DNA of 64,000 nt from Lachnospiraceae bacterium (GCA_021628825.1 JAJXRY010000002.1:1338972-1402971), one strand, 5' to 3'. Shown: positions 3,763-59,861, counted from the first letter of the stretch. Numbers and translations: made by a program. The notes: generated by a model from the letters alone, not told the origin.

Positions 3763-4455
3763 GGCAACACAGACACAGGTAAAGCATTTATTGAAAGAAT
3801 CGCACCGATCGCACAGGCAAAGTCTAAAGGGCGGGCATTGCCGTCCGTGTGTATTGCACAGGCCTGTTGTGAGTCTGCATATGGGACAAGTCCTAAGATG
3901 ATCCGGGCAAATGCTGTATTCGGTATCAAGGTCGGTAAGTCAAAGGTGCATTTCGGTACAGCATGGCACGATAAGGCATACAGCACACGTACAAAAGAGT
4001 GCTATGACGGTAAGACATACACGAATATCACGGACCTGTTCAGGGCGTATGACAGTATCGATGATGCAGTGGAGGATTATTATGATATGCTCGGTACCTG
4101 TAAGAGGTACAAGGCATGTGTCAATGAAAAGAATCCACAGAAGTGCATTACTGCTATTAAAAATGGTGGGTACGCAACAGCTCCTGATTATGTATCAACG
4201 ATTATGAGTATTATTAATAAGTATAATCTGACAAAATACGATTGCCTTACACTTCGAAAAGGATTTTCGGGATCTGAGGTAAAAGAGCTGCAGATCTTGC
4301 TTATCAAGGCAGGATACAGCTGTGGTAAATACGGATCAGACGGTAAGTTTGGTGACAGCACTCTGGAAGCAGTGAATGCATTCCAGGCAGACAGGGGGCT
4401 TGCAGTTGACGGTGTTGTGGGGACAAAGACATGGGCAGAATTGTACAAAGATTAA
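3745..4455 (+). CDS. Endolysin: N-terminal mannosyl-glycoprotein endo-beta-N-acetylglucosaminidase domain plus C-terminal PG_binding_1 domain
   Basis: N-terminal motifs AQACCESAYGTS..FGIK match the glucosaminidase family. C-terminus LRKGFSGSEVKELQILLIKAGY..GKFGDSTLEAVNAFQADRGLAVDGVVGTKTW is a peptidoglycan-binding domain. Confidence 0.85.
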   Translation: MEGLCDGNTDTGKAFIERIAPIAQAKSKGRALPSVCIAQACCESAYGTSPKMIRANAVFGIKVGKSKVHFGTAWHDKAYSTRTKECYDGKTYTNITDLFRAYDSIDDAVEDYYDMLGTCKRYKACVNEKNPQKCITAIKNGGYATAPDYVSTIMSIINKYNLTKYDCLTLRKGFSGSEVKELQILLIKAGYSCGKYGSDGKFGDSTLEAVNAFQADRGLAVDGVVGTKTWAELYKD

Positions 4456-4560
4456 TTGATGGTGTATTGGAGGTATTGTGCCTGATACTTCTTACAATAG
4501 CAGTAGGAGTGTTGTTTCCTATTGCCGTAGTTTTTTTAAATGGTTGGATAAATAACAGGG

Positions 4561-4588
4561 ATCCCGGCGTTATGCCGGGATTTTTTTG
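4561..4588 (+). terminator. Rho-independent terminator after the lysis cassette
   Basis: 8-bp stem atcccggc/gccgggat followed by a T7 run. Confidence 0.6.
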
Positions 4589-4603
4589 CGTATAAACTAT
4601 TGT

Positions 4604-5235
4604 TTATGTCTTTGTATAATGGAGTAGTAAATTGTGTATTACTACAGAAAAATCTCCCTGGCCACCGGAAAAGGCGGCAGCGGTAGAACCGAAATCAATG
4701 GACTGGTCGATCGAAAGATCGGTTTTCGGATCGATGTTATTCTTTTTTAAAATGTATTCAAATACCATTTCAGGCATACCGCCGGCGCGTCCGCCGAGAA
4801 TGGTCTTTCCCTTCAACATATCCCATTGGAAATCATCAATTGGCTCTCTGGAAACCAGAAAGTTTCCGGCCCGCTGGGTGAGCTGCGCAAAATTTAGCAC
4901 ATAATCGGATGCCCCACCTGCATAGGTATAGATCGTGGACTCACTTCCCATGAAACCGATGTCTGCTTCCCCGGTAAGAACGGCGGTCATGGTTTTGTCG
5001 GCACCAAAGCCGGTAACCAGTGTCACATCAAGACCTTCGTCGGCAAAATAACCTTCCTCAATGGCAACATACATCGGTGCATAGAAGATGGAATGGGCCA
5101 CTTCGTTTAAGGTGATGCTTTTTTTAACCCATCCGTGCCGGCAGAACCGGGAGAAGAGCTGCTGCATCCGGAAAGCACCGGAAGCAGGGTCAGTACAAGG
5201 AACAGCACAAAGGGCAATGTTTTTCTTTTTTTCAT
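4604..5235 (-). CDS. NMT1/THI5-like ABC substrate-binding lipoprotein; internal A7 frameshift and 3'-truncated
   Basis: Minus-strand ATG at 5235 gives signal peptide MKKRKTLPFVLFLVLTLLPVLSGCSSSS with an RBS. After an aaaaaaa run the frame changes to ITLNEVAHSIFYAPMYVAIEEGYFADEGLDV..FSGGQGDF. The protein ends about 100 aa early at VVIHNLLLHYTKT, beside the prophage terminator. Confidence 0.6.
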
Positions 5236-5404
5236 ATAACCTCCAGAAAGGATACCCGAAAGAGGGCATTTTGGTTGATAATTTATGGTATGTCATTGGG
5301 AAAAAAGGGTGACATGTATGAAGGGAAAAGCGGTAGACAGTAGTCGACAAAATATGTATAATAATAAAAAAGGGAGTTGACCCAGAAAAACGGAGGGAAA
5401 AAGA

Positions 5405-6775
5405 ATGGGATTAATTAAAGCAGTAACAAGCGCTGTTGGTGGTGTGGTTGCAGATCAGTGGGAGGAGTACTTCTACTGTGATTCTTTAGACGCTGATGTA
5501 TTGGTGACCAAGGGACATAAGCGTCAGAAAGGCCGTGGCGCAGGCAATAACAAGGGTGAAGATAACATTATATCAAACGGATCAGTCATCGCTGTCAACG
5601 AAGGACAGTGTATGATCATCGTAGATCAGGGCAAGGTTGTTGAGCTTTGTGCAGAAGCAGGAGAATTCAGGTATGATACCTCTTCCGAACCGAGTATTTT
5701 CTGCGGAAACCTGGGAGAGAACATTAAGAAAACCTTCTCAACCATAGGAAGACGTATTGCATTTGGCGGTGAAACAGCCAAGGATCAGAGAGTTTATTTC
5801 TTTAATACAAAGGAGATTATGGGGAATAAATACGGAACAGCCAATCCGGTACCGTTCCGTGTTGTAGATCAGAACATCGGACTGGATATTGATATTTCCA
5901 TCCGCTGCAATGGTGAATATTCTTATCATATTACCGACCCGATTCTTTTCTATACCAATGTGTGCGGTAATGTCGTAAGTGATTATGAGAGAAGTGAGAT
6001 TGACAGTCAGTTAAAGACCGAGCTGATGACTGCTTTACAGCCGGCATTTGCGAAGATTTCCGCTATGGGAATCCGTTACAGTGCCGTACCGGCACATACC
6101 ATGGAGCTTGCAGACGCATTGAATGAGGTCCTTTCTGAAAAGTGGGCACAGCTTCGCGGTATTGAAATTGTTTCATTTGGTATTAATACCATGAAGGCCT
6201 CTGAAGAAGATGAAGCAATGATTAAAGAGCTTCAGAAGAGTGCGGTATTGCGTAACCCGAATATGGCAGCAGCAACGCTTGTTGGTGCACAGGCAGAGGC
6301 AATGAAGGCAGCAGCCTCTAATACATCCACCGGACCGATGATGGCATTTGCCGGTATGAATATGGCCAATATGGCAGGAGGTATGAATGCACAGGGATTG
6401 TTTGCAATGGGTGGTTCCCAGCAGGCACCGGTACAGAATGCCGCACCGCAGGCAGCAGCACAGAACGCAGCACCTGCCGCAGCCGCTCCTGCTCCCGCAG
6501 CAGATACATGGACCTGTTCCTGTGGAAAGACAGGTAACACCGGTAAGTTCTGTGCAGAGTGCGGATCACCAAAGCCTGTTGCAGCAGATGGATGGGTATG
6601 TTCCTGCGGCGCAGTCAACAAGGGCAAATTCTGTTCGGAATGCGGAGCCAAGAAGCCGGCAGGAGAACCGCTTTATAAGTGTGACAAGTGCGGATGGGAG
6701 CCGGAAGATCCGAAGAATCCTCCGAAGTTCTGTCCGGAGTGCGGAGATCCGTTTGATGATAATGACGTGCAATAA
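5405..6775 (+). CDS. SPFH/band-7 family protein of the COG4260 (YdjI-like, 'virion core protein-like') type with three C-terminal zinc ribbons
   Basis: N-terminus MGLIKAVTSAVGGVVADQWEEYFYCDSLD..NIISNGSVIAVNEGQCMIIVDQGKVVE is characteristic of COG4260. The tail carries CSCG..FCAECG, CSCG..FCSECG and CDKCG..FCPECG zinc ribbons after an Ala/Gln/Pro-rich linker. Confidence 0.7.
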   Translation: MGLIKAVTSAVGGVVADQWEEYFYCDSLDADVLVTKGHKRQKGRGAGNNKGEDNIISNGSVIAVNEGQCMIIVDQGKVVELCAEAGEFRYDTSSEPSIFCGNLGENIKKTFSTIGRRIAFGGETAKDQRVYFFNTKEIMGNKYGTANPVPFRVVDQNIGLDIDISIRCNGEYSYHITDPILFYTNVCGNVVSDYERSEIDSQLKTELMTALQPAFAKISAMGIRYSAVPAHTMELADALNEVLSEKWAQLRGIEIVSFGINTMKASEEDEAMIKELQKSAVLRNPNMAAATLVGAQAEAMKAAASNTSTGPMMAFAGMNMANMAGGMNAQGLFAMGGSQQAPVQNAAPQAAAQNAAPAAAAPAPAADTWTCSCGKTGNTGKFCAECGSPKPVAADGWVCSCGAVNKGKFCSECGAKKPAGEPLYKCDKCGWEPEDPKNPPKFCPECGDPFDDNDVQ

Positions 6776-8751: not shown

Positions 8752-10991
8752 ATGAGCATTTATGATAGCTTAAATGAAGAACAGAAAAAGGGCGTGTTTA
8801 CTACAGAAGGTCCCGTACTTTTACTTGCAGGAGCAGGCTCCGGGAAAACGCGGGTGCTGACGCACCGCATTGCCTATCTGATTGATGAGCTGGGAGTGAA
8901 TTCCTATCAGATCATGGCGATTACGTTTACCAATAAGGCGGCCGATGAGATGAAGGAACGAGTGGAACGGCTCGTAGGAATGGGTGCAGAAAGCATCTGG
9001 GTGACCACCTTTCATTCGACCTGCGTGCGGATTCTACGCCGTTTCGCAGACCGTCTGGGATATGATAATAATTTCACTATTTATGATACGGATGATCAGA
9101 AATCGGTAATGAAGGATGTCTGCAAGCATTTACAGATTGATACGAAGCAGATGAAGGAAAGGACGATTCTGTCTGCCATTTCTTCCGCGAAAAAAACGAG
9201 CTTGTGGGTGTACAGGAATATGAAACGCAGGCCATGGGGGATTTCCGTAAGCAGAAGGTGGCAGCTGCTTACCGGGAGTATCAGAATATCCTTAAGAAGA
9301 ACAATGCGATGGATTTTGATGATCTCATCATGAATGCGGTGGAGCTGTTCAAGGCGTGTCCGGATGTACTGGAATATTATCAGAAGCGGTTCCGGTACAT
9401 CATGGTGGATGAATATCAGGATACGAATACGGCACAGTTCCAGTTGATCCGTCTGTTGGCAGAGGGATCGCGCAACATCTGTGTGGTCGGTGACGATGAT
9501 CAGTCCATTTACAAATTCCGTGGAGCCAATATCCGGAATATTCTGGATTTTGAAAAATATTATCCGGAGGCTGTTGTGATCCGCCTGGAGCAGAATTACC
9601 GTTCCACGCAGAATGTACTGGATGCAGCGAATGCGGTCATCCGGAATAATGTAGGGCGTAAGAGCAAGACGCTCTGGACGGACAAAGGAGCAGGAAACCG
9701 GATTCATTACCGCCAGTTTGACAATGCATATGAAGAAGCTGAATTTATTGCAGATGATATCAGCCGGAAGATCAAAGACGGCATTGTGGAAGCCGGAGAA
9801 TGTGCAGTCCTTTTCCGGACAAATGCACAGGCTCGTCTCCTGGAAGAGCGCTTTGTTGTGGAAGGCATCCCCTATGATGTGGTTGGTGGAACGAACTTTT
9901 ATGCCAGAAGAGAAATTAAGGATCTCCTTTCTTATTTAAAAACGGTTGATAACGCACGGGATGATCTGGCTGTAAAGCGTATCATCAATGTGCCAAAGCG
10001 TGGGATTGGTGCAGCGACCATTGCTAAAGTGGATGATTATGCACAGATGCATGAAATCAGTTTTTACGAGGCATTGTGTCATGCGGATGAAATTCAGGGA
10101 CTTGGTAAGGCGGAAGCGAAGATCCGTCCCTTTGTCAATATGATTCAGGTATTCCGCAGCCGGCTTTCTTATTATAGCCTGAAGGAATTGATGCATGATA
10201 TTCTGGATACGACGAATTATATTAATGAAATGGATGTCGATGATGAGATTGAGGCACAGAGCCGGATTGATAATATCGATGAATTGATTAATAAAATTGT
10301 TGCATATGAAGAGGCCAACGATGAGCCCTCCTTAAGTGCATTTTTGGAGGAAGTGGCGCTGGTAGCCGACATTGACCGGCTATCCGAAGACGATAACCGT
10401 GTGCTGCTGATGACACTGCACAGTGCAAAGGGACTGGAATTTTCGCATGTGTATCTTGCCGGCATGGAGGATGGTATTTTCCCAAGCTACATGACGATTG
10501 CCTCTGATGATCCGGCAGAGATCGAAGAGGAACGCCGTCTTGCCTATGTGGGAATTACCAGAGCGAAAGACGATCTGACGCTGTGTTATGCCAAAATGCG
10601 TATGGTGCGTGGTGAAACACAGATGAATGCGGTCAGCCGCTTTGTCAAAGAAATTCCGCCGGAGCTGATGGACAATAAGCCACCTGCTCCCAGATATCAG
10701 CCGGTTGTGGCAGATAAATCCTCACGTACCATTTCTGCTCCGAAAAAGCCGTATCTTGCATCTGCCGGAACAGGATCGTTTGGAGCATTGGGAATTTCCA
10801 AAGGATCCGAAGCGGTAAAGGGCGGTAAGCCGGACTATGATATCGGGGACCGCGTCAGGCATGTAAAGTATGGAGAAGGCTTTGTGACAGACCTGGAGCC
10901 GGGACCGAGGGATTATAAGGTGACGGTTGATTTTGATGACGCCGGACAGAAGATTATGTACGCGGCTTTTGCGAAGCTTGAGAAGCTATGA
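8752..10991 (+). CDS. pcrA: ATP-dependent DNA helicase PcrA (UvrD family); single-A insertion in an A7 run at about 9190-9196
   Basis: Walker [20 protein letters not shown] plus motifs through the C-terminal domain. Removing one A gives ...[35 protein letters not shown], matching the UvrD consensus. An essential gene, so the split is probably an assembly artefact. Confidence 0.9.
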
Positions 10992-11402
10992 TCCGCATGC
11001 CATTCCGTAATGTTGTCTGGTTATGTTATTCAGCCATACCATTCAGTAATGCCATTTAGCCATGCCATTCATAAGCTGCCGGATTGTACAGAGGTACTTA
11101 AAGGAAAAGATATATTGTCTCCGGCAACTTATTTCATGCCGGGCATCTGCCCTATAGAAATGATGATACAAAATGCCCTTTGTGAGCAAGCTCCCACGGT
11201 CATCTTGTACAATTATTTCTGCATGGCTGATTATTTGTACAAATTTTGGAAAATGACTGTTGTTAAAATGCGGATGAGATGATATATTATCTAATAACAA
11301 GAGCAGACCGGAATAGGAATTCTTATTTTGGGAAGACTAGACGGGTAATGATCTGCCGGATTGGTGAAACAATGGAAATGCAGGAAAGGACAGGGTGAGG
11401 AT

Positions 11403-11774
11403 ATGAACAAGATAGAAGAGATCGCAGCTATGCTGAAGCAGTATGATATCAAGGATTTGAAGAATGTCAGAGATCTGAATGATTTAAAGGATTTTCTGGC
11501 ACATAAGGAAGAAGAAAAGAAAAAAGGCAAGAATGTGCTTCTGTGCATCTTTGCAGTTGTTGGAGTGATCGTTGTGGTAGCAGCAATCTGCTATGGTGTA
11601 TACCGTTATCTCGTGCCGGATTATCTCGAGGATTTTGATGATGATTTCGATGATGAATTTGACGATGACTTCTTCGATGATGAGGACGAGGATAAGGAAG
11701 ACAAGGAAGAGCAGCCCGCAAAGGACTGGAAGGATGATGTCGAAAAGGAAGATCTTGCAGCTTCTGAAGAATAA
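11403..11774 (+). CDS. Small membrane protein with a coiled N-terminus, one TM and a poly-acidic tail; hypothetical
   Basis: MNKIEEIAAMLKQYD..TM VLLCIFAVVGVIVVVAAICYGVY..DFDDDFDDEFDDDFFDDEDEDKEDKEE. A terminator follows. Confidence 0.4.
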   Translation: MNKIEEIAAMLKQYDIKDLKNVRDLNDLKDFLAHKEEEKKKGKNVLLCIFAVVGVIVVVAAICYGVYRYLVPDYLEDFDDDFDDEFDDDFFDDEDEDKEDKEEQPAKDWKDDVEKEDLAASEE

Positions 11775-11805
11775 AGGATATCAGTCAAAGTGATCATCTA
11801 ATGTC

Positions 11806-11837
11806 GGGATGTGCCGGTGCACATCCCTATTTTTTTG
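11806..11837 (+). terminator. Rho-independent terminator
   Basis: Hairpin gggatgtgc-cggt-gcacatccc followed by T8. Confidence 0.6.
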
Positions 11838-12035
11838 AGTAGAGCACTTAGTGAAAGCGAATCGAAGATGAAGCTTGAGATTCGTGCGAACCATACCTGT
11901 GCACTTAAAGAATGCAAGCCGGAGGTGCAGCATGAATTTAGTGCAGCAGGTAGAGTAGAACTCATTAGGTATTTGTCATATTGGGCATGAAAAAAAGAAA
12001 AAAATTTTTAAATTAGCCCACGGGAGAGAGCAGTG

Positions 12036-12420
12036 TTGGGTATAGAGAAAGAAAAAAACTTGAAAAAAACCCAGAAGAAAAAAAGAAATAGTGGGTACAT
12101 GAGAAGAAAAGTTTAGTAAAAACCCAGTGGAGAGAAAAACAGTGGGTATATGAGAAGAAAAGTTTGGTAGAAACCCAAGGAAGCAAAAAGTATTGGGTAT
12201 ATGAGAAGAAAAGTTTAGTAGAAACCCAGAGAAGAGAAAAATAGTGGGTATAAGAGAAGAAAAGTTTAGTAGAAACCCAGAGAAGAGAAAAAAATAGTGG
12301 GTATAAGAGAAGAAAAAGTTTAGTAAAAACCCAAGGAAGAGAAAAAAATAGTGGGTATATGAGAAAAAAATTTAGCAAAAACCCAAGGAAGACAGAAACA
12401 CTTGGGTATATAAATAAGAG
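12036..12420. repeat. Tandem direct repeat, about 8 units of 51-55 bp (TGGGTATATGAGAAGAAAAGTTTAGTAGAAACCCAGAGAAGAGAAAAATAG), running into the rlmD RBS
   Basis: TGGGTA boxes sit at 12036, 12091, 12142, 12193, 12244, 12297, 12351 and 12402 (spacings 51-55 bp). Units differ by a few substitutions and indels and are purine-rich on the + strand. Confidence 0.9.
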
Positions 12421-12432
12421 AGGAATCATGAC

Positions 12433-14208
12433 ATGAAAAAGGGACAGATCATTGAAGGAGTGGTAGAGCGGGTTGATTTCCCGAATAAGGGGATTGTGAA
12501 TACAGCAGAGGGAATCTGCACAGTAAAGAATGTGCTTCCCGGTCAGAAGATCACACTGATGGTCCAGAAAAACCGTAATAAAAAAGCCGAAGGAAGAGTA
12601 CTCAGTGTGGATCAGAAATCTCCATTGGAAATTGAAAGTCCCTGTCCTTATTTCGGAGAGTGCGGTGGCTGCACCTATATTTCACTTCCCTATGAAGAGC
12701 AGCTTGCCATCAAGGAAGCCCAGGTGAAAAAGCTTCTGGACAGTGTTCTTGACCGGCAGGAGGAAGACTGGGAGTTTCAGGGGATCAAAGGAAGCCCTGC
12801 GCAGTTCGAATACCGCAACAAAATGGAGTTTTCTTTTGGAGATGCCTACAAGGATGGCCCGTTAAGTCTGGGTATGCATAAGAGAGGCAGCTTTTATGAT
12901 ATTGTATCGGTATCAGACTGCCAGATTGTAGACGAAGATTATCGGAAAATTCTTGTCATGACTCAGGAGCATTTCAAGGACTGCAGCTTTTACCACCGCC
13001 TGCGCCATGAAGGATTCCTGCGTCATCTGCTCGTTCGAAAAGCAAAAAAGACGGGGCAGATTTTGGTGGCACTTGTGACAACCTCGGAAGGAATTTCTAA
13101 TGTTCCGGGGGAGGATGTATATCATTATGAAGCTCTTTTGGAAAATCAAAATGGTATAGAGCAGAAGAATCCGGATTCTTCATTGATTGATGCTTATGTA
13201 CAGCAGGATCATGAGCAGCTTGTGGAGGAATGGAAAGAGAAGCTTCTTGCTATGGAGCTGCATGGCACCATGACGGGAATCCTGCATATTATCAACGACT
13301 CTGTGGCAGATGTGGTACAGAGCGATGAAACCAGAGTGCTTTATGGACAGGAATACATCGAAGAGGAATTGCTGGGACTGAAGTTTAAGATTTCCACGTT
13401 TTCCTTTTTCCAGACCAATTCTCTCGGGGCAGAGGTACTCTATGAAACGGCACGGGAGTATGTCGGGGATCTGACACATAATAAGGATAAAGAGGTTGTC
13501 TTTGACTTATATAGCGGGACTGGTACGATTGCACAGCTTATGGCTCTGGTTGCAAAGAAGGTAATCGGTGTTGAGATCGTGGAGGAAGCTGTGGAGGCTG
13601 CAAAGAAGAATGCAGAATTGAATGGTTTACATAACTGCGAGTTTATTGTGGGTGATGTCCTGAAAGTGTTGGATGACATTACGGAAAAACCGGATATGAT
13701 CATCTTAGATCCACCACGAGATGGAATCCACCCGAAGGCGCTGACGAAGATTATTGCCTATGGAATTCCAAGGCTTGTGTATATTTCCTGTAAGCCGACA
13801 AGTCTCATTCGTGACCTTGAGACGTTCCTTGCCAGTGGCTATCATGTAGAGAAGGCGGTTGCCGTGGATCAGTTTCCGTGGACGGCGAATGTTGAGACGG
13901 TTGTTCTTCTTTCCCAACTCCGTCAGAAGCCGGATGATTATATTGATGTGGATATTGATGTTGCTGAATTGGAAGGTACTTCAGCAGAGACAAAGGCAAC
14001 CTATGAAAAGATAAAGAAGTATGTTGCAGAGCATAATGATGGGATGAAGGTTTCGAATCTCTATATTGCTCAGATAAAACGGAAATGTGGTATTGAATTG
14101 GCTGAGAATTTTAATTTGCCAAAGTCGGAGGATGCTAGACAGCCACGGTGCCCGAAGGAGAAGGAAGAGGCAATTGTGGAGGCACTGAAGGCGTTTCAGA
14201 TGATATAA
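12433..14208 (+). CDS. rlmD: 23S rRNA (uracil-C5)-methyltransferase RlmD/RumA, long form
   Basis: Carries a TRAM-like N-terminus, Fe-S cysteines CPYFGECGGCTY, and SAM motifs DLYSGTGTI and ILDPPRDG. An internal ~100-aa insertion and a ~110-aa C-terminal extension are present. Confidence 0.85.
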   Translation: MKKGQIIEGVVERVDFPNKGIVNTAEGICTVKNVLPGQKITLMVQKNRNKKAEGRVLSVDQKSPLEIESPCPYFGECGGCTYISLPYEEQLAIKEAQVKKLLDSVLDRQEEDWEFQGIKGSPAQFEYRNKMEFSFGDAYKDGPLSLGMHKRGSFYDIVSVSDCQIVDEDYRKILVMTQEHFKDCSFYHRLRHEGFLRHLLVRKAKKTGQILVALVTTSEGISNVPGEDVYHYEALLENQNGIEQKNPDSSLIDAYVQQDHEQLVEEWKEKLLAMELHGTMTGILHIINDSVADVVQSDETRVLYGQEYIEEELLGLKFKISTFSFFQTNSLGAEVLYETAREYVGDLTHNKDKEVVFDLYSGTGTIAQLMALVAKKVIGVEIVEEAVEAAKKNAELNGLHNCEFIVGDVLKVLDDITEKPDMIILDPPRDGIHPKALTKIIAYGIPRLVYISCKPTSLIRDLETFLASGYHVEKAVAVDQFPWTANVETVVLLSQLRQKPDDYIDVDIDVAELEGTSAETKATYEKIKKYVAEHNDGMKVSNLYIAQIKRKCGIELAENFNLPKSEDARQPRCPKEKEEAIVEALKAFQMI

Positions 14209-48137: not shown

Positions 48138-49289
48138 ATGACAAAAATAGATATCGTATCAGGCTTTTTAGGAGCCGGTAAAACAACATTAATCAAGAAG
48201 CTTTTAAATGAAGCATTAAAGGACAGCAAGGTCGTACTGATCGAGAACGAATTCGGCGAGATCGGTATTGATGGTGGCTTTCTTAAGGATGCCGGAATTG
48301 AAATCAAAGAAATGAATTCAGGATGTATCTGCTGCTCCCTTGTTGGAGATTTCGGTACTTCCTTAAAGGAGGTAATGAAGACCTATCAGCCGGAAAGAAT
48401 TCTTATTGAGCCTTCAGGCGTTGGCAAGCTTTCCGATGTTATGAAAGCAGTACAGGACGTTATTGACGAGCATGAAGTTGTATTGAACAGTGCGGTAGCA
48501 GTTGTAGATGCTTCCAAGTGCAAAATGTATATCAAGAACTTCGGTGAGTTCTTTATCAATCAGATTGAACATGCCGGAACCATTATCTTAAGCAGAACCG
48601 GCAATATTTCCGAGGACAAGCTGAAAAAGGCTGTGGAACTGATCCGTGAACACAATACCAAGGCCACCATCATTACTACTCCCTGGGATGCACTGGATGG
48701 CAAGGATATTCTTGCAACCATCGAGGGGGCAACCGATCTGGAAGCAGAACTGATGGCAGAGCTGAAAGAACAAAGAGAGCATGATCACGAGCATGAACAT
48801 GAGCACCATCATCACGATCACGACGAGTGCTGTCATCACGATCATGACCATCACCATGATGACGACGATGATGATGATGAGGAGCACGAACATCATCACC
48901 ACGACCATGACGATCATGATCATGAGGAACATGAGCATCATCATGAGCATGGAGAAGACTGCACCTGTGGTTGCCATGACCATGACCACGATCATCACCA
49001 CCATCATCACGCAGATGAAGTGTTCGGAAGCTGGGGAATGGAAACTCCGGACCAGTACAGCAAGGAAGATCTCGAGAAGATCCTTGCAGACCTCGAGGAT
49101 GATGACAAGTACGGTATGGTTCTTCGTGCCAAGGGTATGGTTCCCTGTACCGAAGGCGGATTTATTTACTTTGACTATGTTCCGGAAGAAAGCAATATCC
49201 GTCCGGGCAAACCGGATGTAACCGGTAAGTTCTGTGTCATCGGCTCCAAGTTAAAGGAAGATGCCTTAAAAGAACTGTTTATGAAGTAA
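48138..49289 (+). CDS. COG0523 (CobW/ZigA/YciC-like) metallochaperone GTPase with a ~100-aa His/Asp/Glu-rich insert
   Basis: GFLGAGKTT Walker A, CICC (CxCC motif), then EHDHEHEHEHHHHDHDECCHHDHDHHHDDDDDDDEEHEHHHHDHDDHDHEEHEHHHEHGEDCTCGCHDHDHDHHHHHH, followed by a CobW_C-like domain. Confidence 0.8.
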   Translation: MTKIDIVSGFLGAGKTTLIKKLLNEALKDSKVVLIENEFGEIGIDGGFLKDAGIEIKEMNSGCICCSLVGDFGTSLKEVMKTYQPERILIEPSGVGKLSDVMKAVQDVIDEHEVVLNSAVAVVDASKCKMYIKNFGEFFINQIEHAGTIILSRTGNISEDKLKKAVELIREHNTKATIITTPWDALDGKDILATIEGATDLEAELMAELKEQREHDHEHEHEHHHHDHDECCHHDHDHHHDDDDDDDEEHEHHHHDHDDHDHEEHEHHHEHGEDCTCGCHDHDHDHHHHHHADEVFGSWGMETPDQYSKEDLEKILADLEDDDKYGMVLRAKGMVPCTEGGFIYFDYVPEESNIRPGKPDVTGKFCVIGSKLKEDALKELFMK

Positions 49290-59777: not shown

Positions 59778-59861
59778 TGCGGAAGATGGGACTTGAACCC
59801 ACACGGTATTGCTACCACAAGATCCTTAGTCTTGCTCGTCTGCCAGTTCCGACACTTCCGC
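59778..59861 (-). tRNA. tRNA-Leu (class II, long variable arm), apparent anticodon AAG; CCA not encoded
   Basis: Reverse complement GCGGAAGTGTCGGAACTGGCAGACGAGCAAGACTAAGGATCTTGTGGTAGCAATACCGTGTGGGTTCAAGTCCCATCTTCCGCA. It has a perfect 7-bp acceptor stem, a D-loop with GG, anticodon stem CAAGA/TCTTG with loop CTAAGGA, variable stem GGTA/TACC, T-loop TTCAAGT and discriminator A. Confidence 0.8.

Follow-up and report, generated by a model that had tools for sequence, protein, structure and literature searches.

What might a long run of purine-rich tandem repeats be doing directly in front of a gene for rRNA modification? The question is raised by the region upstream of rlmD in a 64,000-nucleotide stretch of Lachnospiraceae DNA (hereafter the window, to which coordinates refer unless a locus is named). 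The answer that we favor, at a probability of roughly 0.6, is that the array is a lineage-specific minisatellite (VNTR) of ~51 bp that sits between the likely core promoter of rlmD and its Shine-Dalgarno (SD) sequence, where a change in copy number would change the leader and thereby tune rlmD.

The gene itself occupies 12433–14208 on the plus strand and encodes a 591-residue RlmD/RumA-type 23S rRNA (uracil-C5)-methyltransferase (Pfam PF05958, E = 1.3e-22), the homologues of which are named RumA or RlmD by the database sources. At about 12640–12670 it carries a CPYFGECGGC motif, which we take to be the iron-sulfur-cluster motif of RumA-type enzymes. The PF05958 match spans only residues 260–495, so that ~95 residues at the C-terminus and some of the N-terminal half lie outside, and the cluster also has members of 496 and 461 residues. 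The SD region, AGAGAGGAA (12417–12425, plus strand), precedes the ATG by 7 nt, and every allele has conserved it.

An earlier note on this DNA described the array as the whole upstream region of rlmD. This description cannot be upheld, since an intrinsic terminator hairpin (11806–11827) and a conserved leader of ~150 nt precede the array. Reading towards the array, the order is pcrA/uvrD, a small acidic ORF, the terminator and the leader. The terminator (11806–11836, plus strand), a strong one that ends the pcrA/small-ORF unit, consists of a 9-bp stem, in which 6 pairs are G-C, and a T run after it; it was found by a terminator scan, and its hairpin is shared by every related locus and by distant genera. 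The leader (11837–11973, plus strand; ~140–150 nt across loci) is confined to the Anaerobutyricum clade. It contains a strong, invariant inverted repeat at ~11895–11960 (ACCTGTGCACT...AGTGCAGCAGGT) and is present in nearly all related loci, including one with a different upstream gene (L025); in L009 a part of it has been replaced, and L007 has lost most of it. The segment 11828–11980 is predicted to fold as RNA with −43.6 kcal/mol (z = −2.95), for which covariation is not available from the leader sequences, as these are nearly alike across loci. Rfam has no match to the leader. Possible identities are an RNA leader with structure, a palindrome for a transcription factor, and what remains of a repeat element.

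The locus lies on the chromosome and retains its synteny in other genera, with pcrA, the small acidic ORF, rlmD and acetyltransferases as neighbors. Relatives with 69–71% protein identity (L049 and L051) have the same succession of pcrA, small ORF, terminator and rlmD, with the SD following the terminator after only ~35–40 nt. Neither leader nor array is present at these two loci or at a third with 72% identity (L053), and we therefore regard both as additions specific to the Anaerobutyricum clade.

Several other features of these loci were recorded. The small ORF (11361–11774; ~112–137 residues) is kept in its place between pcrA and rlmD in different genera, as seen in L002, L003, L049 and L051. 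No Pfam family matches it; its C-terminus is very acidic and rich in D, E and F, and this repeat-like tail gives 12-bp tandem-repeat signals at 11631–11698. Between the end of pcrA and the small ORF (10993–11152), ~150 nt are missing in L002; a 13-bp tandem repeat, ATTCAGCCATGCC, lies within this segment (11028–11071, 3.4 copies). In L049 (71% RlmD identity), genes for DarT (PF14487) and a Macro-domain protein follow rlmD directly (4165–5823 of that locus), a pair that looks like a DarTG toxin-antitoxin. In L062 (RlmD 89% identical), where rlmD starts at 962, a different, GC-rich tandem repeat with internal hairpins (~97 bp, ~2.2 copies; ACGCGAAGCAACGAGCCAAGG...CGTTTTCT) occupies about 690–950 and stands in place of the terminator, the leader and the 51-bp array. 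The intergenic position upstream of rlmD seems prone to acquiring repeats.

Turning to the array, Tandem Repeats Finder returned one strong entry (12065–12392; period 51, 6.3 copies, 86% matches, score 425) and no comparable array elsewhere in the 64-kb window. By motif anchoring, TGGGTA boxes start at 12037, 12092, 12143, 12194, 12245, 12298, 12352 and 12403, giving successive spacings of 55, 51, 51, 51, 53, 54 and 51, and the ACCCA partners start at 12069, 12122, 12173, 12224, 12275, 12329 and 12381. A 20-mer taken from the unit gave 6 matches at no more than 3 mismatches, as opposed to 0.02 expected by chance. The score, the anchored boxes and the 20-mer matches far above chance together establish that the tandem repeat claimed upstream of rlmD is real. 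The interval 12030–12432 contains 204 A, 101 G, 66 T and 32 C, that is, 76% purine and 8% C, and each unit contains a TGGGTA box and an AAACCCA partner in this purine-rich background. The AACCCA/TGGGTA inverted pair and the purine richness pointed out in the earlier note are thus both borne out. Elsewhere in the window, at 48834–49010, overlapping CAT/CAC-rich tandem repeats with periods of 3, 6, 12, 15 and 45 suggest a histidine-rich low-complexity coding segment.

Two details of the earlier description had to be revised. First, it placed eight units in 12030–12432. That interval holds 7 full units and a terminal box; the eighth is a diverged unit lying just upstream, at 11982–12036. The array as we delimit it therefore comprises 8 full units (11982–12402) and a terminal TGGGTATA box (12403–12410) that represents the start of an incomplete ninth, followed by a gap of 7 nt to the SD. 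Second, the string said to occur in every unit, TGGGTATATGAGA, is exact in only 3 of them, the others having TACATGAGA, TATAAGAGA (twice), TATAGAGAA and TATATAAAT.

All units lie on the plus strand. Unit 1 (11982–12036), in which box and partner read TGGGCA ... AGCCCA, measures 55 nt in the window and 51 nt in L020; its orthologues are the first units of L020, L013, L009, L027 and L029. Unit 2 (12037–12091; TGGGTATAGAG ... AAACCCA) is likewise 55 nt long here, with 50 nt in L020. Units 3 (12092–12142), 4 (12143–12193) and 5 (12194–12244) are each of 51 nt, unit 4 being of a 'GCAAAAAGTAT' type with positional orthologues in L013, L009, L027 and L029. Unit 6 (12245–12297; 53 nt) is missing in L020, and unit 7 (12298–12351) is 54 nt long here and 51 nt in L001 and L020. 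The last, unit 8 (12352–12402; 51 nt), is of a 'GACAGAAACAC' type that is kept in all array-bearing alleles. The terminal TGGGTATA box is also present in alleles without any full unit (those of the L002 type) and is absent in four loci, L058–L061.

The quality of the sequence bears on both the unit length and the existence of the array. L001, an Illumina-derived contig, comes from a strain 99.8% identical to the window, from which it differs by 4 mismatches over 3257 nt. Downstream of rlmD there are also 10 indels between the two, and at each of these the window has an additional base in a run of A or T. The A-runs of the array are also longer in the window than in L001 and L020, and all 38 units from short-read assemblies are 49–52 bp long, mostly 50 or 51. 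Thus, of the reported unit length of 51–55 bp, the lower figure stands, while the units of 53–55 bp are probably homopolymer sequencing errors, which puts the real period at ~51 bp. The window's pcrA is split into overlapping ORFs (8752–9333 and 9204–10991), in relatives an intact gene for 745 residues, and the split is caused by two extra A in an A-run at 9190–9191. Given that this assembly inflates homopolymers, frameshifts elsewhere in the window are suspect as well.

It could be asked whether such an assembly had also expanded the array spuriously. The systematic homopolymer insertions and the frameshifted pcrA lend this some color; however, five independent short-read assemblies (L009, L013, L020, L027 and L029) hold orthologous arrays of 5 to 8 diverged units at the rlmD locus, and the units differ among themselves, which speaks against simple spurious expansion. 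Furthermore, the contig of the near-identical strain, the Logan contig L001, shows the last two units and then ends inside the array, which bears out the earlier note's expectation of assembly trouble without making the array an artefact. We consider a spurious expansion extremely improbable. As for the exact numbers, copy numbers from short-read assemblies are lower bounds, the count of 8 for the window comes from the window's assembly only, and one of the window's two near-identical units is missing in L020.

Is the unit a member of a dispersed family? A scan for the box-partner-box arrangement in one genome per species (185,579 species) gave 7 stretches, with ~7 chance matches expected by our own rough estimate. 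Multiple tandem matches occurred in only two of these, both of which are the rlmD locus (Anaerobutyricum sp. CAVHRK01, L013, with 7 units; 'bacterium' CAVERH01, L009, with 6 units), and the other five were single matches. Viral contigs yielded one single match, taken as chance, and the 64-kb window has no further unit copy or box/partner pair outside the array. The search for other copies that the earlier note recommended has thus found the unit at the rlmD locus only, which makes it a single-locus repeat and rules out an interspersed family of the REP, BOX or MIRU-like kind. A literature search on tandem repeats in Anaerobutyricum returned nothing relevant, and the 51-bp unit is outside any described RNA or repeat family.

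How variable, then, is the array? We compared ~50 related loci, 34 of which are metagenome loci retrieved through a probe from the conserved SD and start region, together with exact-protein look-ups; those metagenome loci that are identifiable by name are human-gut assemblies. Counting the full units from the first box up to the terminal one, we found 8 units in the window and L029, 7 in L013 and L020, 6 in L009, 5 in L027, 2 in L018 and 1 in L003–L005 and in L007, the last of which also has the leader deletion. In L058–L061 a partial first unit is fused directly to the SD. No unit at all is present in L002 and in 29 of the 34 metagenome loci, where the intergenic region is 183–184 nt long. 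Alleles with 0, 2, 5, 7 and 8 units co-occur among loci that are 96–98% identical to the window over the first 1.2 kb of rlmD. Copy number is thus variable among related strains, from 0 to 8 units at one locus, and at this level of identity the variation is a polymorphism within one species-level group.

The junctions of the short alleles suggest how units are lost. At the zero-unit junction only TGGGTAT is common to both flanks, so that collapse by a k-mer assembler could not have produced this allele. The two-unit locus, L018, is a hybrid in which the first unit passes into an internal one within the GAAGAAAAG that both share, and in L058–L061 the GGGAGAGAG of unit 1 is joined to the SD through GAGAG. 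Such deletion junctions in short repeats are the expected footprints of slippage or unequal recombination. With imperfect units arranged head to tail and a copy number that differs among close strains, the locus has the marks of a minisatellite. Taken together, the alleles of 0 to 8 units in one species-level group and the junctions in short repeats show that the array is a genuine VNTR. It is also dispensable: most strains are without it, so rlmD does not need it.

The array is not young. Four lineages that differ by ~10% in rlmD keep the same order of unit types, namely the first, the second, a 'TATGG' type, further units, the 'GCAAAAAGTAT' type and the last, 'GACAGAAACAC'; the array is therefore older than these lineages and has repeatedly been lost or shortened. 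Among positionally orthologous units, 32 of 690 sites (4.6%) differ in the box columns (TGGGTATA and AAACCCA), as against 197 of 1625 (12.1%) in the remaining columns. Boxes thus diverge ~3-fold more slowly than linkers, which indicates some constraint on them. Between the same lineages, four-fold degenerate sites of rlmD differ by 14–28%, and the whole array diverges no faster than synonymous sites. An exception is L027 versus the window, where linkers differ by 15% but four-fold sites of rlmD by only 3.8%; this discordance suggests that array alleles have been exchanged by recombination.

These data bear on the simplest alternative, that the array is a neutral product of slippage with no effect on rlmD expression. 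Presence and absence that vary within a species, many independent deletions and the predominance of the zero-unit allele are all what a neutral repeat would show. However, boxes that are far more conserved than linkers, in an array that diverges no faster than synonymous sites, do not fit well, and it also seems to us unlikely that 400 nt inserted between a promoter region and an SD would be without any effect. We therefore regard neutrality as a minority view, with perhaps one chance in five. The arrays of 5–8 units that keep their order, together with the slow boxes, point to more constraint than a merely tolerated repeat would be under, which also counts against the reading that we favor.

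If the boxes are constrained, a protein might recognize them. According to this alternative, TGGGTAT/AAACCCA is a selected binding site, read as DNA or as RNA hairpins, and the array, by titrating or recruiting a protein, possibly RlmD itself, would regulate rlmD. It could account for the ~3-fold slower divergence of the boxes, which are 98% pairable over 40 distinct units, for the matched TGGGC/GCCCA change in the first unit, for a period held at 49–52 bp (mostly 50–51) in all Illumina assemblies, and for the keeping of arrays in four lineages. On the other hand, most strains have no array and the 64-kb window no other paired site. Nor does covariation help: box and partner can be paired within a unit or between a partner and the next box, both registers are 95–98% pairable over the 40 distinct units and fit equally well, and the only double change is the TGGGC/GCCCA of the first unit. 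Being a single evolutionary event, this change can separate neither an RNA from a DNA reading nor one register from the other. Two specific forms were checked by sequence. Mimicry of the enzyme's substrate is unsupported, as the two units aligned with the 23S rRNA of E. coli and with 23S-containing records of Subdoligranulum and C. difficile do no better than shuffles (159, 198 and 67 of 200 shuffles score at least as high) and none of the best local alignments falls in the U1939 or U747 regions. A CsrA-type sponge is rejected, GGA being present in only 5 of 8 loops, with many orthologous loops reading GTGAAGAG or GAGAAGAG. A selected binding-site array is thus improbable in our view, although the constraint on the boxes leaves room for a binding-site or hairpin role that may have been selected.

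The position of the array relative to the promoter is central to the reading that we favor. A consensus scan found no sigma-70-like promoter on the plus strand of 11300–12700. A relaxed scan admitted −10 hexamers that match at 4 or more of 6 positions, with A in second and T in sixth place. The only −10-like site that is positionally conserved is a hexamer just 5′ of the first box, found in all scanned alleles except L007. In the window it is CATATT within TGTCATATT (11974–11982, plus strand), a TG-extended −10-like element that ends on the opening T of the first box and that we take as the candidate core promoter of rlmD. The hexamer reads CATATT or TATATT with TG-N, as in an extended −10, in the window, L013, L009 and L003, and TAGATT without the TG in L002 and L029; the TAGAT context before the first box is also seen in L027, L018 and L058–L061. 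The candidate is weak, with 4–5 of 6 matches and no −35. Its distance to the ATG is 35 nt in the zero-unit alleles, where the resulting leader would have a normal length of ~25 nt. As the sole position-conserved −10-like hexamer is upstream of the first box, we infer a transcription start near that box, with the array forming part of a 5′ leader and not a stack of promoters.

The opposite view, one of several raised in the earlier note, is that the units are reiterated promoter modules. Each would then be a degenerate copy of the core promoter, and copy number would scale the number of start sites and with it transcription. There is something to be said for it. Most boxes are preceded by AATAGT, AATACT or AACAGT, which share 4 of 6 bases with TATAAT, among them the A in second and the T in sixth place, and thereby equal the first-box hexamer; AATAGT or AACAGT followed by GGG resembles the CATATT-GGG at the start of the array, and the units resemble duplicated copies of the stretch that runs from the first box in the direction of the SD. 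A precedent also exists in promoter-bearing repeats of 54–58 bp (PMC12817950). However, these internal hexamers have no TG extension, no unit has a −35 of at least 4 of 6 matches at a consistent position, and sigma-70 promoters inside the units were found neither by the consensus nor by the relaxed scan. The TATATG/TATAAG string that had been likened to a −10 box fares no better, for it lacks the final conserved T and the units contain neither a −35/−10 pair nor a TG-extended −10. Furthermore, alleles without internal units, as well as those without the terminal TGGGTATA box (L058–L061), keep an intact rlmD, which tells against the idea of promoter modules. A promoter stack is thus a possible but weaker reading than a 5′ leader, and we consider it improbable.

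As a transcribed leader, the array would have distinctive properties. The RNA of 11975–12440 is predicted to fold with −71.6 kcal/mol, compared with −45.0 ± 4.8 for shuffled sequences (z = −5.5), into a string of ACCCA/UGGGU hairpins. Individually these are modest: a partner paired with the next box gives −5.4 to −10.2 kcal/mol, and the alternative register, in which a box pairs with the partner of its own unit, −5.6 kcal/mol. The ACCCAAG of unit 8 pairs with the CUUGGGU of the terminal box (−10.1 kcal/mol, z = −4.1), and no hairpin of the array covers the SD. All three plus-strand frames are closed in every unit, as judged by reading the unit sequences. Rho prefers C-rich RNA, so a composition of 8% C and 76% purine would in our view suit a long untranslated leader. 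Most probably, then, the array makes up a long 5′ leader that is rich in purines and has weak structure.

Other identities were considered and rejected. Rfam gave no match to the array at gathering or permissive thresholds, the best hits in 11750–12600 reaching 11–16 bits (E > 2), and across the whole window the gathering score was exceeded by a tRNA at 59778 alone. A minus-strand ORF of 138 codons (12013–12429) would encode a hydrophobic low-complexity protein without a Pfam hit, cannot be encoded by zero-unit alleles, and is a by-product of the purine-rich strand. Plus-strand mini-ORFs (ATG AGA AGA AAA GTT TAG) fail in that the ATG is missing from TATAAG/TATAGA units and the upstream spacing is poor. 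By inspection, A-tract phasing or curvature is not indicated, the A-tract spacings not being multiples of 10.5 bp, and a G-quadruplex would require loops of ~48 nt between GGG runs.

We propose the following scenario. The array would grow and shrink by slipped-strand mispairing or by unequal recombination between units or short direct repeats, whereby strains of one species would come to carry 0 to 8 or more units. Transcription from the candidate promoter would then copy the array into a C-poor, purine-rich 5′ leader of up to ~450 nt, in which each ACCCA could pair weakly with either neighboring UGGGU. Copy number would alter the length and structure of this leader and give graded rlmD expression without an on/off switch. 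In this way array length may tune rlmD expression. A bolder extension, which we regard as no better than a long shot, is that the leader is a selected, copy-number-tunable cis-regulatory element, the conserved boxes of which, as UGGGU/ACCCA hairpins or as DNA, bind a trans-acting factor, and that gain and loss of units give gut Anaerobutyricum strains heritable, reversible differences in RlmD dosage. If this were true, m5U modification of 23S rRNA would be altered, and the array would be a contingency locus acting on ribosome modification.

The array fronts a conserved rRNA-modification gene in a prominent butyrate-producing genus, Anaerobutyricum. If copy number changes rlmD expression, ribosome modification would be tuned at the strain level, possibly reversibly. 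If it does not, the array is still a marker for strain typing and a warning of a systematic assembly breakpoint. In gut commensals, few minisatellites close to promoters have been catalogued, since assembly from short reads breaks or collapses them.

Several known systems share features with the rlmD array. REP/BIME elements, the pneumococcal BOX and the Neisseria Correia elements are short intergenic inverted repeats that are transcribed, form stem-loops and can alter the expression of neighboring genes. The rlmD array similarly has intergenic inverted repeats that are able to form stem-loops. However, a genome contains tens to hundreds of scattered copies of those elements, with stems that are longer, whereas the rlmD unit is strictly tandem, has stems of 5–7 bp and is found at one locus; MIRUs, too, are interspersed at many loci. 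The sponge RNAs CsrB and RsmZ are arrays of hairpins presenting GGA, and like them the rlmD array would place many short hairpins with purine-rich loops on one RNA. Unlike them, GGA occurs in 5 of 8 loops here and in fewer in relatives, there is no Rfam match, and the array leads a protein-coding gene and has no terminator of its own.

A conserved short motif at regular spacing also brings CRISPR to mind. That the array is not one, as the earlier note maintained, is confirmed: the segments between boxes are themselves repeated, the 51-bp period is a single unit, and no cas hit was found by Pfam in the flanking ORFs (8752–14208), which match a helicase and a methyltransferase. Plasmid iteron or partition-site arrays such as sopC (43 bp x 12) are accompanied by adjacent rep or par genes and a cognate binding protein; such genes are absent at the rlmD locus, which is chromosomal.

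The closest analogue is the promoter tandem repeats, or MIRU-type VNTRs, of M. tuberculosis, with units of 54–58 bp located just upstream of lpdA, cysG and dop; these units contain a mapped promoter, and their polymorphic copy number changes promoter dosage (PMC12817950). The two differ in that the unit sequences are unrelated, the host here is a member of the Lachnospiraceae, and the units of the rlmD array have no convincing promoter, the array probably lying downstream of the start site. Both consist of imperfect units of ~50–60 bp in an intergenic region directly upstream of a gene start, and both differ in copy number between close strains through exact deletions of whole units, a variation that short-read assemblies obscure.
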